In this document: one piece after another, positions 3,358 to 30,994 of the stretch
Layout of the letters: every line of letters begins with the position of its first letter
Position numbering within the stretch: position 1 is the first letter of the stretch
Assembly: GCA_031264885.1 (NCBI GenBank)
Contig: JAISDM010000081.1
Span: 1-37,603, forward strand
Direction of reading: 5' to 3'
From: Peptococcaceae bacterium
Lineage (GTDB): Bacteria > Bacillota > Peptococcia > DRI-13 > UBA5745
DNA: 37,603 nt
Notes under the pieces: generated by a model
What the model saw: only the letters and a program-made list of their open reading frames with translations
What the model was told of the DNA's origin: nothing
Database searches by the model: none
Program-made: the position numbers and the translations under genes

Positions 3358-3626
3358 ATATACTCTTTAAAGTCGTCAAGTGGTTCATCAAAGTCTTTTG
3401 GCAAAGAATACTTGCCTTTCCAAACGCCATAGTGTGAAGCGCGTTTGGCGGTAATATTTTCCTCTGTGTGTACTCCTACCACAAACGGCAAATTATTAGC
3501 TTTCACCGTTTGCCTGAGAAAAAGATTGACTGCCGTAGACAAATCCAATCCGATCGACTCAAAAATTTGTTGAGCCTGCGCCTTTATTGCCGCGTCTGTT
3601 CTGACGTTTATGTTAGCGGTTGCCAT
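3354..3626 (-). CDS. Type II antitoxin with a RelB/DinJ-like RHH N-terminus and a PIN-neutralising C-terminal tail
   Basis: 90 aa. The N-terminus INVRTDAAIKAQAQQIFESIGLDLSTAVNLFLRQ matches the DinJ/RelB ribbon-helix-helix pattern. The C-terminal WKGKYSLPKDFDEPLDDF tail is typical of VapB-like partners. It is translationally coupled to the PIN gene. Confidence 0.75.
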   Translation of the reverse strand: MATANINVRTDAAIKAQAQQIFESIGLDLSTAVNLFLRQTVKANNLPFVVGVHTEENITAKRASHYGVWKGKYSLPKDFDEPLDDFKEYM

Positions 3627-3651
3627 AGCGTCACCTCCTGTTATGTATGCT

Positions 3652-3680
3652 AGTATATCGCAAATTAATCACGTTGTCAA
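3652..3680 (-). promoter_or_regulatory. Sigma-A type promoter for the antitoxin-toxin operon (TTGACA-17-TATACT)
   Basis: The minus strand reads TTGACA (3680-3675), a 17-nt spacer, then TATACT (3657-3652), about 25 nt upstream of the antitoxin ATG. The spacer contains a GCAAATTAAT half-site that is also found in the nearby palindrome. Confidence 0.6.
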
Positions 3681-3730
3681 CATATTTTGATTACGACACG
3701 TGATTCACAGTTTACACACAGTTTAGCATA

Positions 3731-3768
3731 AATATATAAAACGCAAATTAATTTGCGTTTTATATATT
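3731..3768. repeat. Perfect 38-bp AT-rich palindrome, AATATATAAAACGCAAATT|AATTTGCGTTTTATATATT
   Basis: Base-by-base pairing checked from 3749/3750 out to 3731/3768. It lies between the two divergent promoters, so it does not follow any gene end. Confidence 0.9.
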
Positions 3769-3784
3769 AAAAAAGCAAATCATA

Positions 3785-3813
3785 TTGACATATACGGCAT
3801 TTTATTATATAGT
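3785..3813 (+). promoter_or_regulatory. Sigma-A type promoter for the AAA ATPase gene (TTGACA-17-TATAGT)
   Basis: TTGACA at 3785-3790, a 17-nt spacer, TATAGT at 3808-3813. The TTG used as the ORF-track start (3785) is the first base of this -35 box. Confidence 0.6.
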
Positions 3814-3844
3814 TCAGCCATCAGTTCTTAAAGGAGCGAAACGC

Positions 3845-5155
3845 GTGGAACGGATTTTGCTGAACGCGCTTTCCTTATGGAAAGACAATCCGAAGAAAAA
3901 ACCGCTGATCGTCAAAGGGGTGCGGCAATGCGGCAAGACTTGGCTGCTGCGCGAGTTTGGCGAACGGTATTATCGTGATGTGGCTTATTTCAATTTCGAG
4001 GGCAACGACGCCCTGCAAGCCCGGTTCGACGGTGATTTGGACGTGAGGCGGATCATTGCCGAGTTGGGGATACTGCGGCAAAAACTCATTGCGCCGCAAA
4101 CGACGCTGATTATTCTGGATGAAATTCAGTTTTGTAATCGCGCGCTCACCGCGCTCAAGTATTTCTGCGAGAACGCGCCGGAATACCACATTGTCAGCGC
4201 CGGATCCCTGCTGGGCGTCGCGTTGTCCAAGCCGCTTTCTTTCCCTGTGGGTAAAGTAGACTTTTTGACGCTGTATCCCATGAATTTTTATGAATTTTTG
4301 ACGGCCAACGGAGAGCGGCTGCTGTGCGAGTATCTGGAAGAACTGCCTGCGGGCCGGCGAGTATCGGAACTGTTCGCCGACAAGTTGGAGGCTTATCTGC
4401 GCACGTATTATATCACCGGCGGTATGCCGGAAGCGGTGTCCGTATGGCTGGAAAGCCAGGATATCGAAAAATTGGAAGAGACCCAGCAAAAGATACTGGA
4501 CAGTTATGAATTGGATTTTGCCAAGCACGCGCCTTCCAAAGATTTCCCGAAGCTCACGGCTATCTGGCGGTCCATCCCGGAACAGCTTGCCAAGGAAAAC
4601 ACCAAATTTATATTCAGTCAAGTCCGCAAAGGTTTGCGTGCCAAGGATCTGGAAGACGCGCTGGAATGGCTTCTGAACGCGGGACTGGCGTATAAGGCCG
4701 CTAAGATTGAAAAACCCTTCCTGCCGCTCTCCAGCTATGCCGATCAGTCCTGTTTCAAGCTGTATATGGCGGACGTGGGATTGCTTCGCAGGATGTCCCG
4801 TCTGCCTGCCGCCGCCCTGCTGGAAAAAAGCCATGTCTTCCGGGAGTTCAGGGGCGCGCTGACCGAAAACTACGTGCTGTGCGAGTTGGTCAGCCTGTAT
4901 GACGGCGATACGCCGTTTTACTGGAAGTCGGGCAATTCGGCGGAAGTGGATTTTGTGATTCAAAACGGGATGGACATTGTTCCGATCGAGGTCAAAGCGG
5001 AACGCAATGAACGCGCCCGTTCCCTCGCCGAATATCGAAAAAAATATGAACCCCGGATATCGCTCACCGTTTCCATGAACAACGCCGGCAGAAACCACGC
5101 GCCGCTTTATTTGTTATGGAAACTCAAAAAACTGCTCGGCGCCGATCAGTTTTGA
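3845..5155 (+). CDS. AAA+ ATPase of the AAA_14/DUF4143 family (COG1373-like)
   Basis: Walker A GVRQCGKTWLL and Walker B LIILDEIQ, with a C-terminal DUF4143-like region. I chose the GTG start at 3845 because AAAGGAG (3831-3837) lies 7 nt upstream and the upstream ORF extension covers a promoter. Confidence 0.75.
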   Translation: MERILLNALSLWKDNPKKKPLIVKGVRQCGKTWLLREFGERYYRDVAYFNFEGNDALQARFDGDLDVRRIIAELGILRQKLIAPQTTLIILDEIQFCNRALTALKYFCENAPEYHIVSAGSLLGVALSKPLSFPVGKVDFLTLYPMNFYEFLTANGERLLCEYLEELPAGRRVSELFADKLEAYLRTYYITGGMPEAVSVWLESQDIEKLEETQQKILDSYELDFAKHAPSKDFPKLTAIWRSIPEQLAKENTKFIFSQVRKGLRAKDLEDALEWLLNAGLAYKAAKIEKPFLPLSSYADQSCFKLYMADVGLLRRMSRLPAAALLEKSHVFREFRGALTENYVLCELVSLYDGDTPFYWKSGNSAEVDFVIQNGMDIVPIEVKAERNERARSLAEYRKKYEPRISLTVSMNNAGRNHAPLYLLWKLKKLLGADQF

Positions 5156-5224
5156 TTATGACATATCAGCGGTCGTGGAATGTAAACATCCTGTATCGCA
5201 TATGACGCTGGGATAATATAAGAA

Positions 5225-6517
5225 TCACCCATGTGAAAAGGTTTCCATCGCGCGGCCTTTGTATAGCTGGTCCGCGAAATCGGATTCGCCGGGGATGCCG
5301 CAGGCGTCGGCGCGGCAGTGGGCGCAGTGCAGGAACTGTTGGATGTACGGGGCGGCGGCGGCGCGCGCCGCTTCGATTTGTTCGCAGGTGGGCGCGGGGG
5401 TGTCCGCGAATTCATACTGCGGGAGCAGCGGGATGATGTTGTGCTTGGACGCTCCGGCCTCCGATACGGCGCGGGCTATGTCCGCGATGTGACCGTCGTT
5501 GATTCCGGGGATCAGCACCGTGTTGACTTTCACTGTGATTCCCGCCGCCGCGGCTTCGCGTATGCCTGTCAATTGACTGCGGATGAGTATGGTTCCGGCT
5601 TCTTCGCCGCTGACGGCCTTCCCGCCGGTGAGGACGCGGGATACGATTCGGGCTGTGATCTCCGGATCCACCGCGTTCACTGTAACCGTCAGTGTCAGGA
5701 CGCCCACGCCGCGCAGGGCCTCCGCCTTCCCCGGCAGGGCCAGGCCGTTGGTGCTGACGCATTTAATCAGCGTGGGGTAGGATTTGTGGACCAAATGGAA
5801 GGTTTCCATCGCGTGGGGCGACGCGAACGCGTCTCCCGGCCCGGCGATGCCTACCACCGAGAGATCCGGGCATAGCTCCAGCGCCTGCCGGACGGTCTCC
5901 ACGGCATCTTTTGGGGCAAGGATTCCGGACGATACCCCCGGGCGGTTTTCCGTTGGATTGCAGCTTCTGACGCAGAACCGGCACTGTATGTTGCAGGCCG
6001 CGCTGACGGGCAGATGCAGCCGGGCCTTTCGCCTGTTCAGGTGATCGGAGAAGCAGGGATGGGAACGGATATCTGTGACGTTTGAATGGGCAGCCGCGGC
6101 ATTCGAACGGATATCGCCGGCGTTAGAACGGCCGCCGGTGGTACTAGGGCGGGCGTCGGCGCCGGCGGCGTTTGCCCGTCTCCTTGTTTTTTTTAGAAAA
6201 GCCGCGTATCCGTCCAGCAGATCCGCCACAAGGCCGCCGCGCTCCACGACCAATATATTCCTCAGATTCAGTTCCCGCCGCGCGAAATTCCCGATCCGCA
6301 TGGCGATCACCGTTTGGCAGTCCTCGATCAGTTTGAGGGTCTCCGCGAAGGAGACGGCGTTGTGACCGCCTCCTTCGCAGATGGGCGTGTTCTCACGTCT
6401 TTCGACGATTTGCCAGGTATAAGAATCCTCATCGACGTCCGCGATGACGAACTCCGGGCTGCGCCCGAAATGTACGGACACCATCGTGCCGAATTCCGCC
6501 GCTAACGCCACACGCAT
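5225..6517 (-). CDS. NifB-like radical-SAM metallocluster maturase with an N-terminal NifX/NifB-C-type (dinitrogenase FeMo-cofactor-binding) domain
   Basis: The N-terminal ~110 aa (VHFGRSPEFVIADV...IAMRIGNFARREL) resemble the NifX/NafY/NifB-C fold family. Next comes the NifB hallmark HPCFSDHLNRRKARLHLPVSAACNIQCRFCVRS (CxxxCxxC). The C-terminus carries HCAHCRADACG. I chose the ATG at 6517 (AGGAG 8 nt upstream) over the GTG at 6526. Confidence 0.8.
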   Translation of the reverse strand: MRVALAAEFGTMVSVHFGRSPEFVIADVDEDSYTWQIVERRENTPICEGGGHNAVSFAETLKLIEDCQTVIAMRIGNFARRELNLRNILVVERGGLVADLLDGYAAFLKKTRRRANAAGADARPSTTGGRSNAGDIRSNAAAAHSNVTDIRSHPCFSDHLNRRKARLHLPVSAACNIQCRFCVRSCNPTENRPGVSSGILAPKDAVETVRQALELCPDLSVVGIAGPGDAFASPHAMETFHLVHKSYPTLIKCVSTNGLALPGKAEALRGVGVLTLTVTVNAVDPEITARIVSRVLTGGKAVSGEEAGTILIRSQLTGIREAAAAGITVKVNTVLIPGINDGHIADIARAVSEAGASKHNIIPLLPQYEFADTPAPTCEQIEAARAAAAPYIQQFLHCAHCRADACGIPGESDFADQLYKGRAMETFSHG

Positions 6518-6556
6518 AATATTCACTCCTTTGATGTTTCGGCGAGTCCTTAACCC

Positions 6557-7438
6557 TTATATGGCCATAGCCTCGCCGCGCACGTCTCCGCTTTCGATGG
6601 CCAGGATCTGATCCGACCATTCCGCCGCCCAGGCGCGTAAATCCTGGAGGCTCAGGGGATTGGGCGTCTTGGACTCCGTATGGCCGCCGACGCGTTCGGC
6701 CAGCTGCCTGTAGACCTTCGCCTGAGCGGAATCCGGCTGCGCCTCAATGGTGGTTTTGCCGTTCAGCTCGCTTTGGGTCACCGTAATGGAACGCGGGATA
6801 TACTGCATGACCTGAGTATCCGTGCGCGCCGCGAAATCGTCGATGATCGCCTTCTGATAAGTGGAATCCGGAGCCACCGAATTGGCGATGACGCCGCCCA
6901 GAAGCGCGCCGCCTGAGTTTGAGTATTTCTGGATGCCTTTGAACAGGTTGTTCGCGGCGTAAATCGCCATGAAATCCGAGGACGACACGGTGAACACGTG
7001 CTGGGCTATGCCCTCGCGGATGGGTACCGCGAAGCCGCCGCACACCACGTCCCCCAGTACGTCGTAAATCACATAGTCCAAATCCAGTTCCTCAAAGATT
7101 TTTTGCTGCTTCAAAAGCTGCACAGCCGTGATGATGCCCCGGCCCGCGCAGCCCACGCCCGGGGCGGGACCGCCCGCCTCCACGCAGTAGATGCCGTTAT
7201 AGCCGGTAAAAATCGCCTCGTGGGCGTTGAACTTGCCCTTGTCGCGCAGCAGCTCCAGCACCGTCGGGATGTAACTGCCGTCCCGCAGGGTGTTGGTGGA
7301 GTCCGCCTTGGGGTCGCAGCCGAATTGCATCACCTTATAGCCCATATCCGATAGGGCGGCGCTCAGGTTGGACGTGGTGGTGGATTTGCCGATTCCTCCT
7401 TTGCCGTAGATCGCGATTTGCTTGATTTCTTTTGCCAT
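6557..7438 (-). CDS. NifH-family Fe protein (nitrogenase-like reductase component, ATPase)
   Basis: 293 aa. Walker [17 protein letters not shown]. The [4Fe-4S] ligand motifs GVGCAGRGI and [18 protein letters not shown] are present. GCDPKADST is present. RBS GGAGGA lies upstream. Confidence 0.9.
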
Positions 7439-7468
7439 GTGTTTATCCTCCGGTTCCTTTGTTTGATT

Positions 7469-9058
7469 TTAAACGGACATTTCCGCGGTTTTGTCCACGA
7501 TGTAGTGGTCGTAGTCTTTTTGGTACCACTCGTCCGCATAGGGCAATTCAATGTTCCGGCTGAGGTTCTTCGAGTAATTCCGGTTGGCCAGGGTGCGGTC
7601 GATGCGCCGGGCCAGTTCGTAGGCGCCCTTATACCCGAAAAATGTGAAACGCTGTGAAAACAGGGCGATGGAAGGAACGCCCAGCTTATTCATCCAGATG
7701 CCCACCCCCGGATGGGAGATGGCGATGTCGGGCTCCAGTTTTTTCACCATATTGACCAATTCCGAACTCTGATTGGAGATCGCGGTGGGAACGTCGCCTA
7801 ATTTATCCTCGATTTCCTGGAAGAGGGCATTCCCGTAGGTGTCATAATTGAAGTTCCGCATGCCCACCACCTTCATGCCGATTTCATCCGCCAGAAGCGC
7901 CGCCGTTCCCACGCGCATGTAGCCGCCGCCGATGATGACCTTCTTGCCTTTGACCCGCTCCTTGATGGGTTCGAGGGCCTCTTTCAGCTTCCGCTCTTCT
8001 TTGTCCAAAATCGCTTCCGCCTCTTTTTCGAGCCCGAAGAATTGGGCGATTTCCATGACGAACTGCTTGGTGGAGCTGCTGCCCACGGGAATGGTGGGCA
8101 ATATATACGGCATGTCGAACCGCCGCTTCAGATATTCCAGGAAGTACAGATCATGCACATGGCACATGGCCACGTTCAGCGCGGCTTCCGTGATCATCCG
8201 CCAATCGTCCGGATGACTGAATTCGACAAAGAATCTCACGTTGAGCCCTATGGCCTCCAGCAGCCTGCGCATCTCCGCCTCGTCCTGTGCGCCGATGGAA
8301 ACCGCGTTGTACAGATTGACCGTGTGATTCTTGCGGTATTTGTATTCCGCCACTTTCAGATCATAGTCCTTGTCGTTCTCATCGATGGGCGTATAATCCA
8401 CGTAGGGGATCGGCTCGAAAGCAAATCCGGCGCGCTGTATGCCGTGATAAACCACATCATAAGCCGATGAAAAAACCCTCGCCTTGAATCCGGGACAGTG
8501 GAGGGGCACCAGGGGCGCGGTGACCTCCGAACGCAAATCGTCCAGCACGCCGTCTATGTCGTCCCCTATGATGGAGGGGGTGCATGTCATCAGCACGAAA
8601 ATCGCGCTGGGGCGGAATCTCTTGTCGGCCTCCAGAATACACCGCCGCAGTTTGTCCTCACCGCCGTTGATGACCTCGGATTCGGAGAGATTCGTGCTGA
8701 ACCAGCGCGCGTTGGACATCTGTTTGCCGCGCTGGGCGCCGTAAAGCCGGATCGTGAAGTCCATGGTGTGGCTCTGGGAACCGCAGCCGATGGGTCCGTG
8801 CATGATAACAACGGAATCTTTCACCGAGAAACCGATCAAGGTCGCCACGCCCATCTGACAGAAGGTGCTCTGCGCGAATGTGCGCTCGCAGTTGGCGAGG
8901 CAGCCCGCGCAGGCGTTGTCAACCATATCGTCGATATGGCCGCCGTAAGAATGCCCCGTGCGCCGGGTGATCTCCCTTTTTTCGGGAAATTTGGTATCAA
9001 AGTTGATCTCAAGGATCCGGGTGTCTCTGCCGGTTTTTTTATCGTTTGATTCTGTCAT
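7469..9058 (-). CDS. Nitrogenase component-1 alpha-like subunit (NifD/NifE-like)
   Basis: 529 aa. D/E-type motifs: FCQMG, MHGPIGCG, LSESEVINGGEDKL, MTCTPSIIGDDI, LHCPGFKA and NVAMCHVHD. An extra N-terminal CAGCLANC motif is present. Confidence 0.8.
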   Translation of the reverse strand: MTESNDKKTGRDTRILEINFDTKFPEKREITRRTGHSYGGHIDDMVDNACAGCLANCERTFAQSTFCQMGVATLIGFSVKDSVVIMHGPIGCGSQSHTMDFTIRLYGAQRGKQMSNARWFSTNLSESEVINGGEDKLRRCILEADKRFRPSAIFVLMTCTPSIIGDDIDGVLDDLRSEVTAPLVPLHCPGFKARVFSSAYDVVYHGIQRAGFAFEPIPYVDYTPIDENDKDYDLKVAEYKYRKNHTVNLYNAVSIGAQDEAEMRRLLEAIGLNVRFFVEFSHPDDWRMITEAALNVAMCHVHDLYFLEYLKRRFDMPYILPTIPVGSSSTKQFVMEIAQFFGLEKEAEAILDKEERKLKEALEPIKERVKGKKVIIGGGYMRVGTAALLADEIGMKVVGMRNFNYDTYGNALFQEIEDKLGDVPTAISNQSSELVNMVKKLEPDIAISHPGVGIWMNKLGVPSIALFSQRFTFFGYKGAYELARRIDRTLANRNYSKNLSRNIELPYADEWYQKDYDHYIVDKTAEMSV

Positions 9059-9062
9059 TTTT

Positions 9063-10409
9063 TTATCTCCCCGCTAACTGTGTGCCGATCAGGTCTTCCA
9101 GCAGATTCAATCCGCCGCGAAAACCCGCGTAGCCTTTTGAAATGATAATTCGGTTGATGATGGGATAGCTGACCGACAGGAAGTTTCCTTTCAAAACCTC
9201 CGCCAGCCGGCGTTCGATGGTGCTGCCCAGGACGAAGGCCGGCGATATGGTGGGATAGTATTCGTCGGCCAGGAACTGCGGCGTGTTCTGCTCAATGTAT
9301 TGTTGGATCTTGAATGTGTCCGTCTCAAACACCAAATCGGGCCGCGTCTCAAATTCGATCTCGCCGAAGGCGCTCCGTATCGCCGCTTCCTGATCCTCAT
9401 CCAGGTCGTCCGTGATAAAAATGTGCGTCGGTATCCATCCGATCTCGTTGTCCAAGTACCTCGCGTAAGGCAGCGCCTGGGTGGCGTTCGCGACGACGAC
9501 GGCGTAATTCTGGAAATCCGTGTCGGCGATGACGTCCGTGGCCCGGTCTATGAAGCTGTAATAATTCTTGATTTCCGCGGCCAGCAATGGATCGACCACG
9601 TTTTTGCTGATCTCAAGCCTGTCGGCGATGAGCCGCGCGAAATTCTCCGTCGCCTTTGCGCCGATGGGCAGATCCGTCACAAGATAATCGATATCGTGGC
9701 TTTCTTTAATGGTCTTTGCGGCTTCCACGCCGTAAACCCGGGAAAGTATAATATTCAGCGAAGCCTCGCCGGCTTTCAGAAGGTTCTCCTGGGTTTGATC
9801 GCTGGTGACGAAGGTGTTGACCTCGATTCCCAATAAGTTCAAAATCCGCTTGAGTTCGGCCAAGTCGCCGCGGAAAAACGGGTCGTAGGCGGGAACCAGG
9901 CCGAGAAGGTTCACCGCTTTCAGGTTTTTTTTCGTTGAAATAGGGATATACTGCAAGAACAATTCTTCAATGAGACGACCGTATCCGTAATAGGAATTCC
10001 CTTTGAACCCGCCGGATTCCAAAAAAATCACCGGTTTGGGCAGCGGCCGCAGGGAATCGACGACGGCCTTGGCGTCGTCTCCGATGATGTCGGTCATACA
10101 TGCCGTGGAAACAACGAATAGGTCGCCTTGCATCACCTCAAAAACGCCCTTGATCTCTTCGCGCAGTTTTTCCTCTCCGCCGAAGATGACCTCGGATTCG
10201 GAAATGTTTGTGCTTGGCATACCGCCGCTGCCGGCATAGCCGGTACCGTAGTACCCGCCCAGCAAGATGCCTTGGGCGAGGGAGCCTCCGCAGCCCTGCG
10301 CTCCGTGAATGATCGGCACCGTCCTGGGCAAAGCGCCTGTGGTGGCGAGCACGCCGCCCAGCATGCAGGAAAAACGGGGCCGCTCAATGGGTTTGTCACA
10401 TATTGCCAT
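9063..10409 (-). CDS. Nitrogenase component-1 beta-like subunit (NifK/NifN-like)
   Basis: 448 aa. K-type motifs: FSCMLGG, IHGAQGCG, ISESEVIFGGEEKL and STACMTDIIGDD. The stop lies 4 nt before the D-like start. Confidence 0.8.
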   Translation of the reverse strand: MAICDKPIERPRFSCMLGGVLATTGALPRTVPIIHGAQGCGGSLAQGILLGGYYGTGYAGSGGMPSTNISESEVIFGGEEKLREEIKGVFEVMQGDLFVVSTACMTDIIGDDAKAVVDSLRPLPKPVIFLESGGFKGNSYYGYGRLIEELFLQYIPISTKKNLKAVNLLGLVPAYDPFFRGDLAELKRILNLLGIEVNTFVTSDQTQENLLKAGEASLNIILSRVYGVEAAKTIKESHDIDYLVTDLPIGAKATENFARLIADRLEISKNVVDPLLAAEIKNYYSFIDRATDVIADTDFQNYAVVVANATQALPYARYLDNEIGWIPTHIFITDDLDEDQEAAIRSAFGEIEFETRPDLVFETDTFKIQQYIEQNTPQFLADEYYPTISPAFVLGSTIERRLAEVLKGNFLSVSYPIINRIIISKGYAGFRGGLNLLEDLIGTQLAGR

Positions 10410-10429
10410 AAAAGATCAGTCTCCTCTCG

Positions 10430-10552
10430 AACGGGATGGATTCCGGGACAAGCCCGGAATGACAGGATGATGGGGTGACGGGATGGAATGACGGGGCGAG
10501 TCTGGCCGCAGTCTGACCCGGAATGACGGAATGATGGAATGACGGGATGGAT
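10430..10552. repeat. Intra-operon repeat spacer with reiterated GGAATGAC / ACGGGATGGA motifs and a TTCCGGG-N5-CCCGGAA hairpin
   Basis: GGAATGAC occurs at 10456, 10485, 10520 and 10536, with GGAATGAT at 10528. ACGGGATGGA occurs at 10431, 10478 and 10542. The hairpin spans 10441-10459. The spacer lies between the cysK stop (10553) and the K-like start (10409). Confidence 0.85.
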
Positions 10553-11485
10553 TTATTCCGGGAAGAGCGCGGTGGATAAATAGCGCTCCCCTGTATCCGG
10601 GAGAATCACCACGATGTTTTGCCCCGCGTATTCCTTCCGCGCGGCGATCTTCGTGGCCGCGAACAGCGCCGCGCCGGAAGAAATGCCCACCAGGAGCCCT
10701 TCGGAGCGCGCGGCCTCTCTGGAAACCTCGAAGGCTTCCTGGTTTTTCACTCGAAAAATTTCATCCACATATTTGCGGCGGAACACTTTGGGAATAAATC
10801 CGGCGCCGATCCCTTGAATCGCGTGGGAACCGGACGGTTCTCCCGACAGCACGGAAGAATCGTAGGGTTCGACGGCGACGACGTGAATGGCGGGATTGCC
10901 TTTTTTCAGCGCCTCCCCGACGCCGGTGACCGTTCCGCCTGTGCCGACGCCGGATATGAAAACGGCCAGGTTTCCGCCGGTGTCCTCCAGTATTTCGGCC
11001 GCCGTGGTGGTCCGATGGATGGCGGGATTCACCGGATTTTCAAATTGCTGCGGTATGAAGGAGTTTTTGATTCGCGCGCTCAGTTCCTCCGCTTTGCGGA
11101 TCGCGCCTCTCATCCCGTCCGCGCCCGGGGTGAGAACCAGTTCGGCGCCCAGCGCTTTCAAAAGCCGCCTCCTTTCCAAGCTCATGGTCTCCGGCATGAC
11201 GAGAATGATTTTGTATCCCTTGGCCGCCGCCACAAACGCGAGCCCGATTCCCGTATTGCCGCTGGTCGGCTCGATGATCGTCGTTTCGCTGTCGATCCGG
11301 CCTTGCTTCTCTCCGTCTTCGACCATGGCGAGGGCGATGCGGTCTTTCACACTGCCGAGGGGGTTGAAATACTCCAATTTCGCGAGGATTTCGCCGGACA
11401 GGTTTTTGCCTGCCGAATATCGGTTCAAATGTAAGAGTGGCGTTTTGCCGATCAATTCGGTCAAGCTTTCCGCGATTTTTGACAT
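10553..11485 (-). CDS. cysK: Cysteine synthase / O-acetylserine sulfhydrylase family PLP enzyme (CysK/CysM type)
   Basis: LIGKTPLL, the PLP-lysine motif [11 protein letters not shown], the [10 protein letters not shown] loop and [10 protein letters not shown] are present. I chose the ATG at 11485 (AAGGAAGGGA 7 nt upstream) over the GTG at 11506. Confidence 0.85.
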
Positions 11486-11545
11486 TCGGATTTCCCTTCC
11501 TTTCACATTTTGTTTCAGAGACTTGTGTGGTCTTAGGCGGTGTTC

Positions 11546-11572
11546 CTTAGGACTTGTTTAACGAGTCCTAAG
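11546..11572 (-). other. Intercistronic 9-bp perfect hairpin (CTTAGGACT-N9-AGTCCTAAG) straddling the permease stop codon
   Basis: Positions 11546-11554 pair with 11564-11572. The permease TAG occupies 11570-11568 inside the stem. No U-tract follows on the minus strand. Confidence 0.5.
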
Positions 11573-12395
11573 CCGTTCCGGACTCGTCCCGCCAGCGGAA
11601 GCTGCGTTTTTCCACCGATTCCAGCACGAAGTTGATCGCGGTGCCGAATATGGCCATGACCACGATATAAGCGTACATTTCCGGGATTTTGAAGTTGGCC
11701 TGATAAAAGAACATGGCGTATCCGAGACCGCTGTTGGCGCCCATCATCTCCGCCGCGATGAGGATCAAAATGGAGAAGGTGGCGGACATGCGCACGCCGG
11801 TGAAGATGAACGGCAGGGCGGCCGGCAGTACCACGGAGCCAAACAGCCTGAGGGATCCCGTTCCCATAGCTCTGGCCGCTTTGACAAGCTGCGGGTCCAC
11901 GCTTCTTACGCCGGCGATGGTATTCAGCAGCGTGGTCCACAGCGCGCCCCACATAATGACGATGATCTTGGACGTTTCCCCGATGCCGAAGAACATCACG
12001 AACACGGGGAGCAGCGCCAGCGTGGGCATGTTGCGGAAGACCTGCAATAATGGATTGACCAGATTCCCGAAGCCCTTGAACCAGCCGATGGCAAGCCCGA
12101 GGGGGATGGCCACCGCGAGGCCCAGAAGGAATCCGAAGAAGGAACGCGTCAGGCTGATCGCGATGTTTATCCATAATTTGCCGCCGGCGGCTTCCCGAAC
12201 CAGCGCGAAAAAAACCCTGGATACGGGAGGGAAGAAGGCCGGCGTCGAGACCAACTCCAGGCGGGCGGCGAGTTCCCACAGGGCGGCGAATATAAAAATC
12301 GCGGCGGTGCTGGTGAAGATTTTTTTGAGCGCCGCGGCGGAAGCGCTTTGTTTGCCGGCCTGTTCAATGATAACGATATCTTTGTTTCTTTTCAT
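11568..12395 (-). CDS. ABC transporter permease, NitT/TauT (sulfonate/taurine/nitrate) family
   Basis: 275 aa from the ATG at 12395 (MKRNKDIVI...). It has multiple hydrophobic helices and a BPD-type EAA-like loop (AARAMGTGSLRLFGSVVLPAALP). The upstream part of the ORF-track ORF is Arg/Pro-rich non-coding read-through. Confidence 0.8.
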   Translation of the reverse strand: MKRNKDIVIIEQAGKQSASAAALKKIFTSTAAIFIFAALWELAARLELVSTPAFFPPVSRVFFALVREAAGGKLWINIAISLTRSFFGFLLGLAVAIPLGLAIGWFKGFGNLVNPLLQVFRNMPTLALLPVFVMFFGIGETSKIIVIMWGALWTTLLNTIAGVRSVDPQLVKAARAMGTGSLRLFGSVVLPAALPFIFTGVRMSATFSILILIAAEMMGANSGLGYAMFFYQANFKIPEMYAYIVVMAIFGTAINFVLESVEKRSFRWRDESGTA

Positions 12396-12441
12396 CTTAT
12401 CCTGCCTGTTGTTTGCTCGTATTAGGCGCCGCGGCGAATCC

Positions 12442-13332
12442 TTACAGCACTGCGGAGGGCGTGATTTCGTCCGCGAGGCTTCGGGGGGCGCCTTCCGGCC
12501 CGGAGCCGGTCTCCGGCGATTCTGTGTCATGCAGCAATTCCCATATCCGGTGTACGATGACGCCGTAATCGGCGGAGGCGCGCGCGTCGGCGTTAAACCG
12601 GGGGCGCGGCAGACGGATATCAACGATGTCTTTGATGCGCCCCGGGCGCGGTGTCATCACGACGACCCTGTCGGCCAGGAGTACCGCCTCCTCAATGCTG
12701 TGCGTGACGAAGATCACGGTTTTTTTTGTTTTGCCCCAGATCTTCAGAAGCTCATCCTGGAGGGTTTCTCTCGTCTGGGCGTCCACAGCGGCAAAGGGTT
12801 CGTCCATCAGAAGCACTTTAGGATCATAAGCCAGGGACCGGGCGATGGCGACCCGCTGCCGCATACCGCCCGACAGCTCGTTGGGATAGCGTTCCTCGAA
12901 GCCGTTCAGATCCACCAGGTCGATGTATGTCCGCGCGATCTCGGTTCGTTCTTTCTTGGGAATCCGCTTGACTTCAAGCCCGTACTCCACGTTGCGCAGC
13001 ACGGTGCGCCATGGAAAAAGAGCGTAGCCCTGCATAATAAAGCCTCTGTCCAGATTCGGCCCGGCGACTTCGCGGCCGTCGATGGTGATGCTTCCGCCCT
13101 TGGATTTGGTCAGCCCCGCGATAATATCCAACAGTGTGGATTTGCCGCATCCCGAAGGCCCGACGATGGAGACGAAGGCGCCGTCTTCTATGGAAAGGCT
13201 GAAACTCTCCAGGGCGACAAACTCTTCAAGCTGTTTCTTCCCCGGATTTCTTATATAATAGACTTGCTTCAGATTGTTGAGGATAATCTTCGCGTTACCG
13301 GCGCTTCCCAAAGCCGCTTCCATCAATGTCAT
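12442..13332 (-). CDS. ABC transporter ATP-binding protein, NitT/TauT family
   Basis: Walker A GPSGCGKSTLL, signature LSGGMRQRVAIARSL, Walker B LLMDEPFAAVD. The start is ambiguous. The ATG at 13332 overlaps the binding-protein stop (TAATG). The ATG at 13323 sits 11 nt from GGGAGG. Confidence 0.8.
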   Translation of the reverse strand: MTLMEAALGSAGNAKIILNNLKQVYYIRNPGKKQLEEFVALESFSLSIEDGAFVSIVGPSGCGKSTLLDIIAGLTKSKGGSITIDGREVAGPNLDRGFIMQGYALFPWRTVLRNVEYGLEVKRIPKKERTEIARTYIDLVDLNGFEERYPNELSGGMRQRVAIARSLAYDPKVLLMDEPFAAVDAQTRETLQDELLKIWGKTKKTVIFVTHSIEEAVLLADRVVVMTPRPGRIKDIVDIRLPRPRFNADARASADYGVIVHRIWELLHDTESPETGSGPEGAPRSLADEITPSAVL

Positions 13333-14414
13333 TACCTCCCGATTTCCGCGTCGGAGGCGGGCGGGTCGTTCGGCACGAATTGGTTGGTGTAACTCTCTTC
13401 GGGCGCAATGTCGCCAGGCGCCCAATAGCCCAATTCCTCGGACAGATCGAACCATAACTGTCCCCATTCCGGACGAATGTTTTTTTCCTGGCAATAGGAG
13501 TTGGAGCTGACCTCATCCGGTTCCAATCCCAGGTATTCCGCGCCTACCACCCTTGAATAGTCCGGGTTGGCTTCCATAAAAATCCTGGCCCGGTATGTGG
13601 CGTTGACGAAGCCCTGCACAATATCCGGATGTTCTTCGATAAAGGCGTCGCTGAACCCGCGCACAGCCAGGCCGCCTGCCGGCGTACCGACGACATCGTA
13701 GCTTTTGGCCGCCATGCGAACCCCTCCGGCCGCCAGGGCCACGCCGGCAAAGGGCGTATGAGAAGTTGTGGCGTCGATCTGTCCGTTGACGAGGGCCTGC
13801 TCAATCTGGCCGGCCTGGGGCATGACGACGTATTCCACCGATGCGGGATCGAGGCCTCTTTCGGATAAATACTTCGTGATAAATCCGTCAGTACAGACGG
13901 CCAGACCGCTAATCCCAACCTTCTTGCCGGCAAAGTCCTCGATGGATTGGATATCGCTGTCTTCCCGCACCAAGTATGTGATATGGGGATTGTCGGGATC
14001 ATCCACGAATCCGGGCGCCACAGCCAACGGACTCAGTCCCGCCAGCCGGGCCATCGCCACCTCCGTCAGATGCCCCTGAGTAAAAACGTCGATATCGCCT
14101 TGCTCCAGCGCCTGAAACTGTGTGATGCCCTGACCCAGCGTGCCGATATAGTCGATTTGGATGCCCTCATCCTCGAAGAACCCCAGTTTGTCGGCGATGA
14201 TGGTTTCACTGAAGGTGGTTTGGGTCACCGCGCGCAAGGTAAAAAGTTCACTGCCGCCGGTTCCGGCGCTGCCGGCGCCTGAATCGCCGTTCCCGTTCGC
14301 CGCCGCGGCGCCGGAACCCGAACCGCCGCAGCCCGCCGCCGCCAAAACAAACAGCAAGGTCACCGCAGCCGTTAATAATCTCTTTGGACGAATCATTGAT
14401 TTAGAATATTTCAT
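13332..14414 (-). CDS. Lipoprotein substrate-binding protein, NMT1/SsuA/TauA-like (NitT/TauT family)
   Basis: Lipobox LAAAGC follows a hydrophobic signal, then a Gly/Ser/Ala linker. The fold-family assignment rests on gene context and on length and pattern. It is the first gene of the operon. Confidence 0.7.
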   Translation of the reverse strand: MKYSKSMIRPKRLLTAAVTLLFVLAAAGCGGSGSGAAAANGNGDSGAGSAGTGGSELFTLRAVTQTTFSETIIADKLGFFEDEGIQIDYIGTLGQGITQFQALEQGDIDVFTQGHLTEVAMARLAGLSPLAVAPGFVDDPDNPHITYLVREDSDIQSIEDFAGKKVGISGLAVCTDGFITKYLSERGLDPASVEYVVMPQAGQIEQALVNGQIDATTSHTPFAGVALAAGGVRMAAKSYDVVGTPAGGLAVRGFSDAFIEEHPDIVQGFVNATYRARIFMEANPDYSRVVGAEYLGLEPDEVSSNSYCQEKNIRPEWGQLWFDLSEELGYWAPGDIAPEESYTNQFVPNDPPASDAEIGR

Positions 14415-14601
14415 AATGAGCGACTCCTTTCATAAGGACTTGTTGAATGATTCCCAAGCCCTGTACAAATAGATACAGTAAAGCCGCCGGATTCAACAGT
14501 CGCCCATACCGCCCTTGCCGCACATCGCGAGATATTTCGACGTTCTCAACATAACCACGACCCCCAGTAAATTTATAATACATATAAAATTAGTATGATT
14601 T

Positions 14602-14630
14602 ATTATAATACCGGCATTTTGATTTGTCAA
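14602..14630 (-). promoter_or_regulatory. Consensus sigma-A promoter for the ABC-cysK-nitrogenase-like operon (TTGACA-17-TATAAT)
   Basis: The minus strand reads TTGACA (14630-14625), a 17-nt spacer, then TATAAT (14607-14602). This predicts a leader of about 180 nt before the ATG at 14414. Confidence 0.65.
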
Positions 14631-14769
14631 GCGTCAAAATTGCGGGGCGTCGTTCTGTTCCGTGTCCATATATGGTGTTGACGATGCGATTTTTGACGTT
14701 TTCGGATGGTCTGGCCCGTCTTTGACGGACGCGAATTTCCGGGCTGTGAAAAAATCCTTGAAAAAAGCA

Positions 14770-14797
14770 TTGACTTTTTATTTACATATGATATAGT
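14770..14797 (+). promoter_or_regulatory. Sigma-A promoter for the patB-Mo-enzyme-peptide operon (TTGACT-16-TGaTATAGT, extended -10)
   Basis: TTGACT at 14770-14775, TG at 14789-14790, TATAGT at 14792-14797. RBS GGGAGG at 14862-14867 precedes the ATG at 14875. Confidence 0.55.
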
Positions 14798-14874
14798 ATT
14801 ATTATATAACATATCAAACATATATATAATATGGTTAAAACTGTACAGACGTTTTAATATAGGGAGGCGAGAAA

Positions 14875-16053
14875 ATGCGCGATGATCAAAATAAAAGCGA
14901 CCGATATGATTTTGACGCCGGACTTGATCGCCGCGGAACCAACTGCGTGAAATGGGATACCATTGAAGAAGGATATATTCCGATGTCTATCGCGGATATG
15001 GATTTTGGGACGCCGGCGCCGATTATAGAAGCGATCCGGCGCAGACTGGATCACCCCGCGTTCGGGTATGGCATCCGGAATACGGAGATGGTTGACGCGG
15101 TGATCGCGTGGTTTGGGCGTACATACGACTTTGAGCTGGACCGTTCCTGGATTGTTCCGCTGACCGGCATTTATTCCGCGCTCGCTTTCTTCTCCAGTCT
15201 GACGGACGGCGATGTGCTGACCGCGACGCCTAACTATCCGCCGATCCTCAGAGGGCCGGAACGTGTCGACCGCGCTTGCGTCTTTTCTCCTATGAAGAAG
15301 GCGGCGGAGACAAGGCTGGCGCGTTATGAGCTGGATTTCGAGGATCTTGAGCGTAAAGCCGCGGCGGATGTGGGCATGTATTCCATGTGCAGTCCGCATA
15401 ATCCCATCGGCCGGGTGTATACAAAAGAAGAACTGGAACGTTTGAGCGATTTTGCGCGCAAGCGGAAACTGGTTGTTCTGTCAGATGAAATACATAACGA
15501 ACTGATTTATGATCATCCGCATACGCCGTATTTGACGGTTGAGGGCGGGCTTGAATCCTCGGTGACGCTGATTTCCGCCGGGAAAACATGTAATATTCCC
15601 GGAATCCCCGCCGCGCTGGCCATTGTTCCGGACGAGGCGTTACGCGGGCGGGTCATCGCCGCCGCGTCCGGATTTGGCGGCGCCGGCGCGCTGAACACAG
15701 AGGCGCTGCGCGCGGCGTACGCGGAATGCGACGATTGGAAAAAGGCGCTTGTTTCCTATTTAAAAGAGAACCGAGATTATTTAGAAACCGAATTTCTGAG
15801 GCGCTTCCCAAAAATCCGGCTGACCCATACGGAAGGAACTTACTTGCAATGGGTGGATTTCAGCGGCTATGGCATTTCAAACGCCGCTCAATGGTTATTG
15901 GATCATCCAAAAATCGTGGCTCACGGCGGCAAAATGTTCGGCGGCGCGGAAAGCGAGGCGCGGATTAATTTTGGGTGTCCGCGTTCGCTCATTAAAGAAG
16001 CGCTGGACAGAATGGAGACGTCGCTGACGAGTTCTGAATTGAACGCGGTGTGA
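14875..16053 (+). CDS. patB: PatB/MalY-family PLP-dependent C-S lyase (cystathionine beta-lyase type, aminotransferase class I/II fold)
   Basis: The N-terminus YDFDAGLDRRGTNCVKWD is typical of MalY/PatB. The PLP-lysine motif is ISAGKTCNIPG. 392 aa. Confidence 0.8.
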   Translation: MRDDQNKSDRYDFDAGLDRRGTNCVKWDTIEEGYIPMSIADMDFGTPAPIIEAIRRRLDHPAFGYGIRNTEMVDAVIAWFGRTYDFELDRSWIVPLTGIYSALAFFSSLTDGDVLTATPNYPPILRGPERVDRACVFSPMKKAAETRLARYELDFEDLERKAAADVGMYSMCSPHNPIGRVYTKEELERLSDFARKRKLVVLSDEIHNELIYDHPHTPYLTVEGGLESSVTLISAGKTCNIPGIPAALAIVPDEALRGRVIAAASGFGGAGALNTEALRAAYAECDDWKKALVSYLKENRDYLETEFLRRFPKIRLTHTEGTYLQWVDFSGYGISNAAQWLLDHPKIVAHGGKMFGGAESEARINFGCPRSLIKEALDRMETSLTSSELNAV

Positions 16054-16081
16054 AAAAAGAAAAACCGGGAGGAGACTGACA

Positions 16082-18322
16082 ATGAGCGCGACAGATCAGC
16101 GTAATACGGCGGAGTTCCAGACATATAAGACCGGCGTGGTCGTGCCGGGTATCTGCGGAATTTGCGCGTCCAGCTGCCCGGTGGATCTGACCATACAGAA
16201 TCAGAAGATTGTGCGTGTGGAAGCGTCCAAAATACAGGGCGGAAGCGGGTATCTCTGCGCCAAAGGCGCGGCGGGGCGCGGCTATGTCTATCGCGAGGAT
16301 CGGCTCAAGACTCCGCTGAGACGCGTTGGAGCGCGTGGCGGGAACGCCTTTGAGCCCATCACATGGGACGAGGCTTACGCTGAGATCGCGGCAAAAACAG
16401 GCGCCATAAAATCAGCTTACGGCCCGGACAGTGTGGCTTTTTACACGGGTTATTCCAAATGGTACCGGCCTTTGCTGCACCGGCTGGCGCACAGCTTTGG
16501 CACGCTCAATTACGGCACCGAGTCCTCTAGCTGTCACCAGGCGTCTGTCATGGCTAACCTGGTCAGCGCGGGCGTCTATTGCCGGCCGGATGTGGCGAAC
16601 GCGGAGCTTTTGATCGCCTGGGGCGTAAATCCCTTCCACAGTGGGAATTTTTCCGGTGAGATGATGGAAATTCAGAAGGAAAAAGGGCTGCGCGTGCTGT
16701 GTGTGGATCCGCGGGTGACGCCGTATACGCAGCAGTACGCTGATATTCATCTGCGCCCGAAGCCTGGAACGGACGGCGCGCTGGCTCATTTTTTCGCGAA
16801 ATATTTGATCCGCGCGAAAAAAACCGACGCTGAATTTATTGAGAGGTACGTTCACGGTTATCCGCAATACGCGGAATATGTCGAAGCTTTTGACATTGCT
16901 TCCGTGTCCCGCGTTACGGGCATATCCGAGAAGGAACTGCGGGCCGCCGCTCAGCTTATCGCCAGACACAGCCGGCGCTTTACGATACAGGTGAGCCAGG
17001 CCGCGATCACGCATCATATCAACGGGTTTCAATCCTATCGCGCGATCATCGCCTTATGCGCCATTACGGGAAATGTGGATCGGGAAGGCGGGCTGATTCC
17101 GATGGAGTATCCCGGGAAGGACGACCGGCTGAACAAGCCGCGCCTTTTAACAGAGGAATTTATTCAGCAAACCCGGCCCGATCACGCCAAACCGAAGATC
17201 GGTTCCGAGCGGTTCCCCCTTTGGTCGGAACTGATCGATGAATTTCAGGCGATGGATCTTTGGCGCAATATTTTGGAAGGAACACCCTATCCCATTAAGG
17301 CGGTCATCGCCTTTGGAATGAACGTTCACATGTTTCCGGGAAACGCCAAACTCTTTGAAGCCTTGAGCGCGTTGGACTTCTATGTGGATGTGGATATTTT
17401 TGACACGGATTCGGCAAAATACGCGGATATCATTCTGCCCGCGTGTTCTCCCTATGAGCGCACCGAGCTTATCGGCGCCATGGGCGGCGGCATACGTTAT
17501 TCCCAGCCCGCGATTCCTCCGCTGTACGAATCCCGTTCGGACGCGGACATCATCAGTCAGTTGGCGGCGGCGTTCGATTTGGACGATCCTTTGCTGAGAA
17601 GAGGCTATGACGCTTGCAGCCGTTCTATGCTGCGGGAAATCGGACTTACAATGGACGATTTGAAGGAATCTCCCGCCGCGCGGCGGATTCCGGGTAAACT
17701 GCCATATTTCACGGGTCATTGCCTGCGGAACGGGTTTGATACGCCGACCGGCAAGTACGAGTTGTATTCGGAACGTATCGCGAAATATCAGGATCGGTAT
17801 CCGTATGATCCGCTGCCGGTATTTGTGCCGCCGATTGAGGCGGAGGACGAAGGGGATGAACGGTTTCCGCTGACGCTGACAGTGGGCGGCAGGCTGCCTC
17901 ACGCGTTCCACTCCCGTTTCCACAATGTACGCTGGGCAAGAGCGCTGCGACCGGACGCAGCCGCGGATATTCATCCGGGCGACGCCGGAAGAATGGGGAT
18001 CCAACAGGGCGATTCTATCGCCATAGCCACAGCAAACGGGGAGATTACCGCCAAAGCCAATCTGACATGGATGGTTCCGGAAGGGTCTGTCTTTATGTTC
18101 CAGGGTTATGTGGAGGCGGACGCCAACGCGATTCTGGGAGCGGAACATCTGGATCCTTATTCCGGATTCCCGGGATACCGTTCCAACAAGTGCGCGGTCA
18201 GAAAGATAAACGCCGTGGCGCCGGTCAAAATTACAAAGGCCGCGAAACCGGTCAAGTTGGCCAAAGCGGCCGGAATCGCAAAGGAGCCGCGAAAGGAATT
18301 GGAGGTGAGCGTCCGAAAATGA
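16082..18322 (+). CDS. Molybdopterin (Mo/W-bisPGD, DMSO-reductase superfamily) oxidoreductase catalytic subunit, cytoplasmic
   Basis: 746 aa. The N-terminal FS0 cluster motif is CGICASSCPV...YLCAKG. There is no twin-arginine or signal sequence. The domain order is typical of the family. The C-terminus is a Lys/Ala-rich tail. Confidence 0.8.
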   Translation: MSATDQRNTAEFQTYKTGVVVPGICGICASSCPVDLTIQNQKIVRVEASKIQGGSGYLCAKGAAGRGYVYREDRLKTPLRRVGARGGNAFEPITWDEAYAEIAAKTGAIKSAYGPDSVAFYTGYSKWYRPLLHRLAHSFGTLNYGTESSSCHQASVMANLVSAGVYCRPDVANAELLIAWGVNPFHSGNFSGEMMEIQKEKGLRVLCVDPRVTPYTQQYADIHLRPKPGTDGALAHFFAKYLIRAKKTDAEFIERYVHGYPQYAEYVEAFDIASVSRVTGISEKELRAAAQLIARHSRRFTIQVSQAAITHHINGFQSYRAIIALCAITGNVDREGGLIPMEYPGKDDRLNKPRLLTEEFIQQTRPDHAKPKIGSERFPLWSELIDEFQAMDLWRNILEGTPYPIKAVIAFGMNVHMFPGNAKLFEALSALDFYVDVDIFDTDSAKYADIILPACSPYERTELIGAMGGGIRYSQPAIPPLYESRSDADIISQLAAAFDLDDPLLRRGYDACSRSMLREIGLTMDDLKESPAARRIPGKLPYFTGHCLRNGFDTPTGKYELYSERIAKYQDRYPYDPLPVFVPPIEAEDEGDERFPLTLTVGGRLPHAFHSRFHNVRWARALRPDAAADIHPGDAGRMGIQQGDSIAIATANGEITAKANLTWMVPEGSVFMFQGYVEADANAILGAEHLDPYSGFPGYRSNKCAVRKINAVAPVKITKAAKPVKLAKAAGIAKEPRKELEVSVRK

Positions 18323-18828: not shown

Positions 18829-18862
18829 GAGAACAAGAAAAAACCAGGAAGGATTTGTAAAT

Positions 18863-21528: not shown

Positions 21529-21529
21529 T

Positions 21530-22432: not shown

Positions 22433-22436
22433 CACG

Positions 22437-24477: not shown

Positions 24478-24505
24478 AGTGTCCTGACGGAAAGGCGGAT
24501 AAATT

Positions 24506-28167: not shown

Positions 28168-28205
28168 ACAGAGATATGAGGAACTCATGTCTCTGTTTTG
28201 GTTTT
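28168..28205 (+). terminator. Rho-independent terminator after rpmB
   Basis: The 13-bp stem ACAGAGATATGAG / CTCATGTCTCTGT (one G-U pair) has a GAA loop and is followed by TTTGGTTTT. Checked base by base for 28168-28196. Confidence 0.75.
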
Positions 28206-29035: not shown

Positions 29036-29082
29036 TATAAGAGCCGCGATGCGTAATTCGGAGATTCGCGCCTGTCAGGGAC

Positions 29083-30985: not shown

Positions 30986-30994
30986 AAAGGGCCG

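Follow-up and report, generated by a model that had tools for sequence, protein, structure and literature searches.

The stretch analysed here (the window) is one complete 37,603-bp contig of the metagenome-assembled genome (MAG) 'Peptococcaceae bacterium' (protein MDR1204738.1), the analysis covering this one contig of the genome. It carries eight minus-strand genes for an ATP-binding cassette (ABC) importer, the cysteine synthase CysK and a nitrogenase-like (NFL) enzyme with its Fe protein (NflH), catalytic pair (NflK and NflD) and cofactor maturase (a NifX-NifB fusion). We propose, with a probability of about 0.6, that NflH, NflKD and NifX-NifB work as a reductase that depends on ATP and would cleave a C-S bond of an imported organosulfur compound, the product, sulfide or less likely a small thiol, then being fixed by CysK onto O-acetylserine. 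This proposal stands on the gene content, on the conservation of the cluster ligands, on the separation of the enzyme from Mar, a methylthio-alkane reductase, and on the synteny of cysK, nflK and nflD.

That nitrogenase-like enzymes serve anaerobic organosulfur assimilation is an established idea. Anaerobic routes to sulfur from organic compounds are poorly known, only Mar and Isr having been characterised among nitrogenase-like C-S reductases, and the large number of NFL clades still uncharacterised is, according to a 2026 review, a main open problem of the field. What our comparison of predicted proteins shows as new is the distinctness of the cysK-linked clade from both of these enzymes. 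More tentatively, and with the odds somewhat against it, the cysK-nflK-nflD clade may catalyse an NFL reaction of a new kind, either ATP-driven hydrogenolysis of thiols or S-substituted cysteines or the full reduction of a sulfonate to sulfide; in both cases an [Fe8S9C] cluster would be the site of the reaction and cysteine synthesis would be fed directly.

The operon and its predicted reductase

Pfam and NCBIfam matches bore out the gene content and order that a sequence-only reading had given: a lipoprotein substrate-binding protein (SBP), an ATPase, a permease, CysK, NflK, NflD, NflH and the NifX-NifB fusion (Table 1). The first of these genes starts about 188 nt downstream of a promoter, and the gaps between successive genes are -1, 46, 82, 143, 4, 30 and 39 nt, so that the earlier description 'tightly packed' is fair for most gaps (-1 to 82 nt) and fails for the 143-nt cysK-nflK spacer. 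Four start codons in the operon were revised; for the ATPase the likely true start is ATG 13332, which has GGGAGG in front of it and shares 1 nt with the stop codon of the SBP gene. We infer that the eight genes are a real operon, forming one sulfur-scavenging transcription unit read as a single transcript. A tblastn search of the 37.6-kb window found two PF00148 genes only (K and D), so nifE and nifN are absent from it, as had been claimed.

The best solved matches of both catalytic subunits belong to Mar. NflD matched MarD best (9fmg_A, E = 5e-61, with true nitrogenases at ~1e-32) and NflK matched MarK best (9d9u_C / 9fmg, E = 6e-66, best true nitrogenase ~1e-18). 9FMG is the Rhodospirillum rubrum MarDK2H2 complex (PMC12552129), and the cluster-ligand positions compared here are those identified in that work. 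The six P-cluster cysteines are all kept in NflKD, three in each subunit: C67, C92 and C159 of NflD align with C66, C91 and C158 of MarD, and C15, C40 and C104 of NflK with C32, C56 and C121 of MarK. C299 and H449 of NflD align with the [Fe8S9C] ligands Cys270 and loop-I His429 of MarD, and these two ligands as well as the six cysteines are invariant in the 22 full-length family sequences (of 24 in the clade).

The nitrogenase loop-II histidine position (VnfD His423; Av NifD His442) is occupied by F467 in NflD, and the positions of nitrogenase Gln191 and His195 by F196 and Y200. The region reading 'SQSxGHHIA' in NifD is FKARVFSSAYDVVYHG in NflD, which agrees with the earlier remark that the D protein lacks the NifD GxSQSLGHHIAN region. 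The nifD, vnfD, anfD and nifE NCBIfam models were far below cutoff for the window proteins, and a neighbour-joining (NJ) tree set NflD apart from VnfD and AnfD, the nitrogenase references being these two partial sequences. On both counts NflD falls outside nitrogenase Groups I-III.

NflH matched MarH (9fmg_D) with E = 2.8e-146 (best NifH 6e-83), has the P-loop GKGGIGKST and the cluster cysteines C97 and C133, and reached 398 bits with TIGR01287 (cutoff 394). The B protein consists of a Nitro_FeMo-Co domain (residues 14-107) followed by a Radical_SAM domain (173-352), and its radical-SAM part, which contains the CNIQCRFC motif, matched archaeal NifB structures (7jma, 7bi7) with E = 1e-81 over residues 154-418; the TIGR01290 nifB model gave 292 bits. 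By these matches B is classed as a true NifB-type radical-SAM protein. The N-terminal place of its NifX-like domain is the reverse of the canonical NifB order. The same NifX-NifB fused order is found in two distant loci of the family, L015 (5435-6613) and L017 (13603-14823), at 48-52% identity over the full length, and Gottschalkia acidurici has the radical-SAM and NifX proteins as separate genes, Clostridium sp. DJ247 the canonical NifB order.

With a paired PF00148 D/K, a NifH-type ATPase and a NifB-type radical-SAM protein, the system is assigned to the Group IV NFL enzymes. The D, K, H and B matches and the ligands point to the machinery of a Mar-type NFL enzyme with nitrogenase-type clusters, not to a nitrogenase, CfbD or the protochlorophyllide and chlorophyllide reductases (DPOR/COR), and family scores and MarDK matches thus uphold the earlier assignment to Group IV rather than to nitrogenase, CfbD or BchN/B types. 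In many MAGs the NCBI name of the NflD family is 'oxalate:formate antiporter' (P0001, P0004, P0006-P0008, P0029, P0063 and the P0026 cluster), an annotation error that has been propagated, the protein being a PF00148 nitrogenase component 1.

CysK scored 433 bits with TIGR01139 (cutoff 351), and its best solved match is Mycobacterium tuberculosis CysK1 (2q3b, E = 3e-113), with the SVKDR, TSGNTG and GTGGT motifs aligned, as expected of a bona fide, ordinary-looking cysteine synthase A. The Cys and Met content is low in CysK, NflK, the SBP and the ATPase, a weak trend that we do not count among the main evidence.

Separation from Mar and conserved neighbourhoods

The D tree was computed by NJ from Kimura distances with 100 bootstraps. 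Its 130 D-type sequences comprised the best-matching representatives of 50%-identity clusters, obtained by searching 1.84 billion proteins, together with selected named homologues, second D copies from related loci and partial MarD, VnfD and AnfD sequences; Rhodobacter capsulatus IsrD, Endomicrobium proavitum NfaD and R. rubrum NflDK were outside the sample. The window family was recovered in 97/100 bootstraps, its inner subclade in 100/100 and the Mar core clade in 91/100, and the window family was joined with the core or the broad Mar clade in 0/100. Its sister (70/100) is a large clade that has the middle P-cluster cysteine only and no Cys275 equivalent.

NflD is 29% identical to MarD and NflK 32% identical to MarK, and the Rhodopseudomonas palustris pairs Mar1, Mar2 and NflDK3 are mutually 52-65% identical. 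Pocket residues H194, W195, S196, F199, F374 and H375 are conserved in Mar, Mar1 and Mar2 (bioRxiv 10.64898/2026.08.20.746119). NflD has V195, F196, S197, Y200, F403 and N404 at these positions, two of the six being kept. C73/Q74 of Mar correspond to L74/I75, and R428, as placed by a pairwise HMMER alignment, to a serine. Residues that are invariant in the family and have no counterpart in the Mar clade include Y200 and H302, the latter three residues past the cluster cysteine.

A Mar-type D/K pair (39-58% identical to MarD) lies beside the window-type K/D in G. acidurici, Clostridium polysaccharolyticum and Clostridium sp. DJ247. Both types in one locus are thus paralogues, presumably with different jobs. 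Within the stretch read, there is a single NifB-type gene in G. acidurici and in sp. DJ247 and a single nifH in G. acidurici. Single loci of this kind in cultured Firmicutes are L004, L003 and L016. From the tree, the pockets and these double loci, we take the window NFL to be a separate, well-supported paralogous clade, distinct from Mar and from Isr. The suggestion that the operon is a 'Firmicute counterpart' of Mar or Isr therefore did not hold: the family forms its own clade (97/100), groups with Mar in 0/100 bootstraps and lacks the features of Isr.

Neighbourhoods were read for nine homologues (D 40-69% identical) and mapped for nine close loci, all from termite-gut MAGs, that a scan of the genome collection with the D protein had returned; termite-gut Clostridia MAGs are also the closest relatives of the window. 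The cysK-nflK-nflD core is present in Ruminococcus albus, a Treponema MAG, Paenibacillus zanthoxyli, a Fusobacteriaceae MAG, another metagenomic contig and most termite-gut Clostridia MAGs. Overall, cysK stands beside K/D in loci whose D is 40-91% identical to window NflD, and CysK, at 64-88% identity, is adjacent to K/D in most family loci. Variants of the core were seen: importer genes lie between cysK and K in G. acidurici, L013 has the order D-cysK-K, and Clostridium sp. DJ247 carries its linked PALP gene some 3 kb upstream of K-D, after the Mar-type pair. The short contigs L007 and L011 start just upstream of K, before any cysK could show. In some loci nflH and the NifB gene adjoin; in others they are placed elsewhere. 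The complete window order SBP-ATPase-permease-cysK-K-D is common to three MAG contigs (L008, L010 and L014), and this recurrence argues that it is not a chance arrangement; L010 continues after D with nflH and a weaker NifB-like match, and L008 and L014 end at or inside D.

The locus of G. acidurici (L004, 4266-20746) reads cysK, importer, K, D, NifB, NifX, NifH, Mar-type D-K, O-acetylhomoserine sulfhydrylase and MetNIQ. Of the two pairs, it is the Mar-type one that adjoins the O-acetylhomoserine sulfhydrylase, so that either type of reductase is grouped with the sulfhydrylase expected to take up its product. Sulfur genes surround the loci of R. albus and G. acidurici, and the sulfur-acquisition context proposed earlier was borne out. 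On its flanks the G. acidurici locus has MetNIQ and a gene for a bifunctional glutathione synthetase. A small DUF2292 gene heads three related clusters (L004, L015 and L017); as a part of the window operon it was rejected, no tblastn homologue being found in the window.

The importer was examined as a clue to the substrate. The SBP scored 4e-24 with NMT1, 99.9 bits with SsuA_fam (cutoff 163.5) and 35 bits with TauA (cutoff 304), and its similarity to SsuA and TauA structures is remote only (E ~1e-7), which places it in the broader NMT1 (NitT/TauT) superfamily only. The closest NCBIfam families of the ATPase are SaoA and taurine ATPases, both below cutoff, and the permease is SsuC/TauC-like, also below cutoff. 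SaoX, SaoA and SaoP were top or near-top NCBIfam matches of the importer, all far below cutoff, and membership in the Sao system was rejected.

Proposed reaction and competing explanations

According to the proposed scheme, an organosulfur compound would enter via the adjacent NitT/TauT-family importer, and NflH, as a MarH-type Fe protein, would pass electrons to the NflK/NflD complex. A P-cluster is predicted at the K/D interface, and NflD would hold a NifB-made [Fe8S9C] (L-type) cluster by Cys299 and His449 on a Mar-type loop I. The NifX-NifB fusion would make and hand over this cluster, and NifEN would not be needed. NflKD would then reductively cleave the C-S bond to give sulfide, possibly a small thiol, and CysK would condense the released product with O-acetylserine to form cysteine. 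By analogy, this order parallels that of Mar, in which dimethyl sulfide (DMS), ethyl methyl sulfide (EMS) or 2-(methylthio)ethanol (MT-EtOH) is cleaved to methanethiol and the methanethiol is captured by O-acetylhomoserine sulfhydrylase. Sulfide release by such an enzyme is plausible because R. palustris Mar2 removes sulfur groups from ethanedithiol.

Several points weigh against this scheme. The chemistry and its product, like the single transcript and a control by sulfur status, are our deductions from sequence. The tree is of the NJ kind and not a curated maximum-likelihood tree, and its MarD, VnfD and AnfD references are partial sequences transcribed from HMMER alignments. Alone among the loci read, the two short contigs apart, C. 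polysaccharolyticum has a K-D pair without any cysK inside 10 kb, and the window itself shows neither a known sulfur riboswitch nor a regulator gene. Across the family, the importers beside K/D are not orthologues: their SBPs make up at least three NMT1 groups that are unrelated to one another (20-32% identity between groups), and in the Treponema locus an Opp-type importer and an amidohydrolase take the place of the NMT1-type importer. What is imported may thus vary from host to host, or be something other than the direct substrate, and the label 'sulfonate/taurine-type', earlier offered as a clue, says little about the substrate, which, as the sequence-only reading had itself stated, cannot be read from the sequence. 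Lastly, CysK could equally act before the reductase and make an S-substituted cysteine for NflKD.

In full, this last order would have CysK join a thiol, imported or generated in the cell, to O-acetylserine, after which NflKD would reductively cleave the alkyl-sulfur bond of the S-substituted cysteine to yield cysteine and a hydrocarbon. Thiols can serve CysK-type enzymes as nucleophiles, and S-methylcysteine formally counts among the methylthio-alkanes. The cysK-K-D core is near-constant while the importers vary, which fits a common cysteinyl-containing substrate. We nonetheless regard this route as unlikely, since the pocket residues differ between the two family subclades, which is less expected for a common substrate, and the G. 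acidurici Mar-type pair followed by MetY favours capture after cleavage.

The operon could also be that of a Firmicute Mar orthologue, converting DMS or methylthioethanol to methanethiol, which would then give S-methylcysteine via CysK or serve methionine synthesis elsewhere. Like MarBHDK of R. rubrum (Group IV-C; PDB 9FMG) and R. palustris Mar1/Mar2, the window system is of the two-component kind (H plus D/K), has a NifB-type maturase and no NifEN, keeps the six P-cluster cysteines and the equivalents of Cys270 and loop-I His429 as predicted [Fe8S9C] ligands, and lies in a sulfur-assimilation context next to a pyridoxal-phosphate (PLP) sulfhydrylase. MarDK is its closest solved structure, the cluster ligands are identical, NflH matches MarH (E = 3e-146) far above any NifH, and reviews call Mar systems likely present in Clostridia (PMC13474568). 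In contrast to Mar, the gene order is K-D and not D-K, the partner is CysK and not MetY, an ABC importer is in the operon, B has an N-terminal NifX domain which MarB does not have, and the pocket differs (L/I for C73/Q74, V for H194, F for W195, Y for F199 and N for H375), with replacements at four of the six positions that Mar conserves there. Orthology appears improbable, given these replacements, the 29% identity of NflD to MarD as against 52-65% among Mar1, Mar2 and NflDK3, the grouping with Mar in none of the 100 bootstraps, and the occurrence of true Mar-type pairs (39-58% to MarD) in the same loci as the window type; moreover, volatile thioethers need no ABC importer.

A reductase of sulfonates resembling Isr would take imported isethionate, taurine or a similar compound to sulfite, or to sulfide at the large cluster. 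The importer is of the NitT/TauT family, and the NJ sister clade (70/100) has an Isr-like ligand pattern and may contain IsrD. Like IsrBHDK of R. capsulatus (Group IV-F), the window system is nitrogenase-like, presumably serves anaerobic organosulfur assimilation and lies near a TauABC-type importer and cysteine-synthesis genes. IsrD, however, keeps only the Cys88 equivalent of the P-cluster cysteines and is without the Cys275 and His442 equivalents, and IsrB resembles BciD and has nothing but the radical-SAM motif in common with NifB (PMC11423573). NflD, unlike IsrD with its one cysteine and neither ligand, keeps three P-cluster cysteines and both cofactor ligands, and the window B is a true NifB by its matches, not a BciD-like radical-SAM enzyme. 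Isr-type identity was rejected because NflD keeps all ligands and B matches NifB (1e-81). CysK cannot use sulfite, no sulfite reductase gene was seen in any cluster read, and the SBP resembles SsuA/TauA remotely while SBP types vary across the family, so that we give sulfonate reduction of the Isr kind a low probability.

By far the least credible explanation is a minimal nitrogenase (Nfa-like, Group IV-A) or NifEN-like cofactor scaffold with the sulfur genes as chance neighbours: for all that NflH exceeds the NifH equivalog cutoff (398 vs 394 bits), that NifB is present and that the MAG, by its closest relatives, is probably from termite gut, the loop-II cofactor position has F467 and not a histidine, the Q191/H195 equivalents are F196 and Y200, the cysK-K-D synteny kept across phyla shows that the sulfur genes are not chance neighbours, and the Paenibacillus carriers of the NflD family are, we assume, diazotrophs with canonical nif genes. 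Group IV-A N2 fixation is known in the termite-gut bacterium Endomicrobium proavitum (PMC13474568), whose NfaBHDK resembles the window set in being a BHDK set without NifEN, in its termite-gut habitat and in its MarH-like Fe protein. Nfa is, however, reported to keep the N2-reduction ligands, whereas NflD has neither the loop-II histidine nor the Q191/H195 equivalents, and the window set, unlike Nfa, is embedded in sulfur genes.

Returning to the proposed cleavage of a C-S bond followed by capture on CysK, the association of such enzymes with cysteine synthase has precedents. Dos Santos et al. (2012) noted that NFLs with the Cys275 equivalent adjoin cysteine synthase or O-acetylhomoserine sulfhydrylase (PMC3464626), and a 2026 paper on a termite spirochete (Pillotina corrugata) describes nifK/nifD in an operon with cysteine synthase (PMC13067680). 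Compared by description, the window system is like these NFLs, R. rubrum NflDK and R. palustris NflDK3 in having D/K with cysteine synthase or sulfonate-type ABC genes; it differs from these earlier pairs in that the H/B/K/D set and an importer stand on one strand, apparently as one unit. The purple-bacterial NflDK and NflDK3 are induced by sulfate limitation, and NflDK3 is Mar-like (52-56% identical to Mar1) rather than window-like. The earlier statement that a fusion of transporter, CysK and Nfl is uncharacterised in a spore-former stands insofar as no function has been shown experimentally, and a literature search for experiments on cysK-linked NFL in Clostridia found nothing specific; the link to cysteine synthase itself was noted in 2012 and 2026, and the module occurs in several phyla. 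A gene for the germination protease Gpr at 35175-36275 (-) fits a spore-former.

The gene content will not surprise a specialist, and the operon offers a clean, testable entry to an uncharacterised NFL clade. It is a compact, complete candidate, with importer, Fe protein, catalytic pair, cofactor maturase and product-capturing cysteine synthase, the last being a clear clue to the product. Relatives are found in cultivable R. albus, G. acidurici, Paenibacillus durus and others, which makes the hypothesis directly testable, and the clade is found widely among anaerobes of the rumen, the termite gut and soil (Ruminococcus albus, Treponema, Fusobacteriaceae, Paenibacillus). Should its substrate and products differ from those of Mar, the known [Fe8S9C] chemistry would widen, the comparison would show how pocket residues set specificity in the superfamily, and a new microbial hydrocarbon source and a gut sulfur-acquisition route could be revealed. 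If the reaction is truly new, this would be a third functional class of C-S-cleaving NFL enzymes, and could be an unrecognised source of methane, ethane or ethylene from non-methanogens.

Control regions and flanking genes

Table 1. Features of the window, with positions on the forward strand of the contig.
Feature	Positions	Strand	Basis or remark
SBP, lipoprotein substrate-binding protein of NitT/TauT-family ABC importer	13332-14414	-	NMT1/SsuA-like; lipobox LAAAGC
ABC transporter ATPase	12442-13332	-	ABC_tran 1e-30; longer open reading frame 12442-13494
ABC transporter permease	11568-12395	-	BPD_transp_1 3.6e-27; start revised
CysK, O-acetylserine sulfhydrylase A	10553-11485	-	TIGR01139 433 bits
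NflK, beta-type subunit of the catalytic component	9063-10409	-	PF00148 1.7e-61
NflD, alpha-type catalytic subunit, predicted P-cluster and [Fe8S9C] sites	7469-9058	-	PF00148; MarD best solved match
NflH, ATP-dependent Fe-protein reductase	6557-7438	-	MarH match
NifX-NifB fusion, predicted maker of the [Fe8S9C] cluster	5225-6517	-	Nitro_FeMo-Co and Radical_SAM
Sigma-70-type promoter TTGACA-17-TATAAT	14602-14630	-	12/12 consensus matches
5' leader, ~188 nt	14415-14601	-	19-codon upstream open reading frame; hairpin pairing the SBP ribosome-binding site
Candidate operator just downstream of the -10	14566-14589		24-nt direct repeat, 75% identical to second copy
Divergent neighbour operon, outside the NFL unit proper, possibly co-regulated	14875-27027	+	gene content; shared repeat
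Five copies of CCGTCATTCC (<=1 mismatch)	10456-10545	-	in the 143-nt cysK-nflK spacer

The consensus promoter reported earlier was confirmed at its position; a scan found it to be the sole perfect TTGACA-17-TATAAT match within 3000-15500, and promoters lie at the equal relative position in the related loci L008, L010 and L014. The leader has a minimum free energy of -53.4 kcal/mol (z = -2.4), and one of 200 shuffled sequences folds as well. Its upstream open reading frame MLRTSKYLAMCGKGGMGDC (14493-14552) has 19 codons, among them two for Cys and three for Met, and its stop codon overlaps the stem. Leaders of relatives bear terminator-like hairpins. These features suggest a regulatory role for the 5' leader of the operon. 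A known riboswitch or leader RNA upstream of the operon was rejected: Rfam gave no match at the gathering threshold anywhere in the window, 14350-14900 had none even at E <= 1, and there was no match upstream of the operon in eight related loci.

The second copy of the candidate operator (14795-14818) lies at the divergent patB promoter, and one of the window copies contains ATAACATATC. In 17 fetched loci, the exact 10-mer ATAACATATA was found solely just downstream of the -10 of three SBP-first operons, at 48-57 in L008, at 4646-4655 and 4663-4672 (an inverted pair) in L010 and at 2111-2120 in L014. A regulator may thus bind at the candidate operator, and the presence of the 24-nt repeat at both divergent promoters suggests that one regulator governs the NFL operon and the divergent operon.

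The divergent operon encodes as its first gene a PatB-family C-S lyase (314 bits, cutoff 340). A signal-less, cytoplasmic molybdopterin oxidoreductase (PhsA/DmsA-like), a DmsB-like Fe-S subunit, a five-gene Opp-type ABC importer, PepA (M17) and PepQ (M24) are also encoded. Judged by these genes, it looks like another unit for sulfur scavenging, with cysteine-containing or S-conjugated peptides, or sulfoxides, as possible sources.

Inside the NFL operon, five of the six window matches of CCGTCATTCC cluster in the cysK-nflK spacer, which also contains a CCGGG...CCCGG hairpin and is 143 nt long in the window as against 20-90 nt in relatives.

A 982-aa BspA-type leucine-rich-repeat protein is encoded at 5-2953 (+), about 2 kb from the end of the operon; its presence may be coincidence, such proteins being common in gut bacteria. 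The segment between this gene and the operon (2968-5155) has a low GC content, 0.45 against ~0.58, and may be inserted. It carries a PIN/RelB toxin-antitoxin pair and, convergent with nifB, a gene for an AAA_14/DUF4143 ATPase. On the other side, 28187-35191 contains housekeeping genes, for biotin ligase, a Na+-translocating decarboxylase set (carboxyltransferase, gamma subunit, biotin carrier and beta subunit) and RecG.

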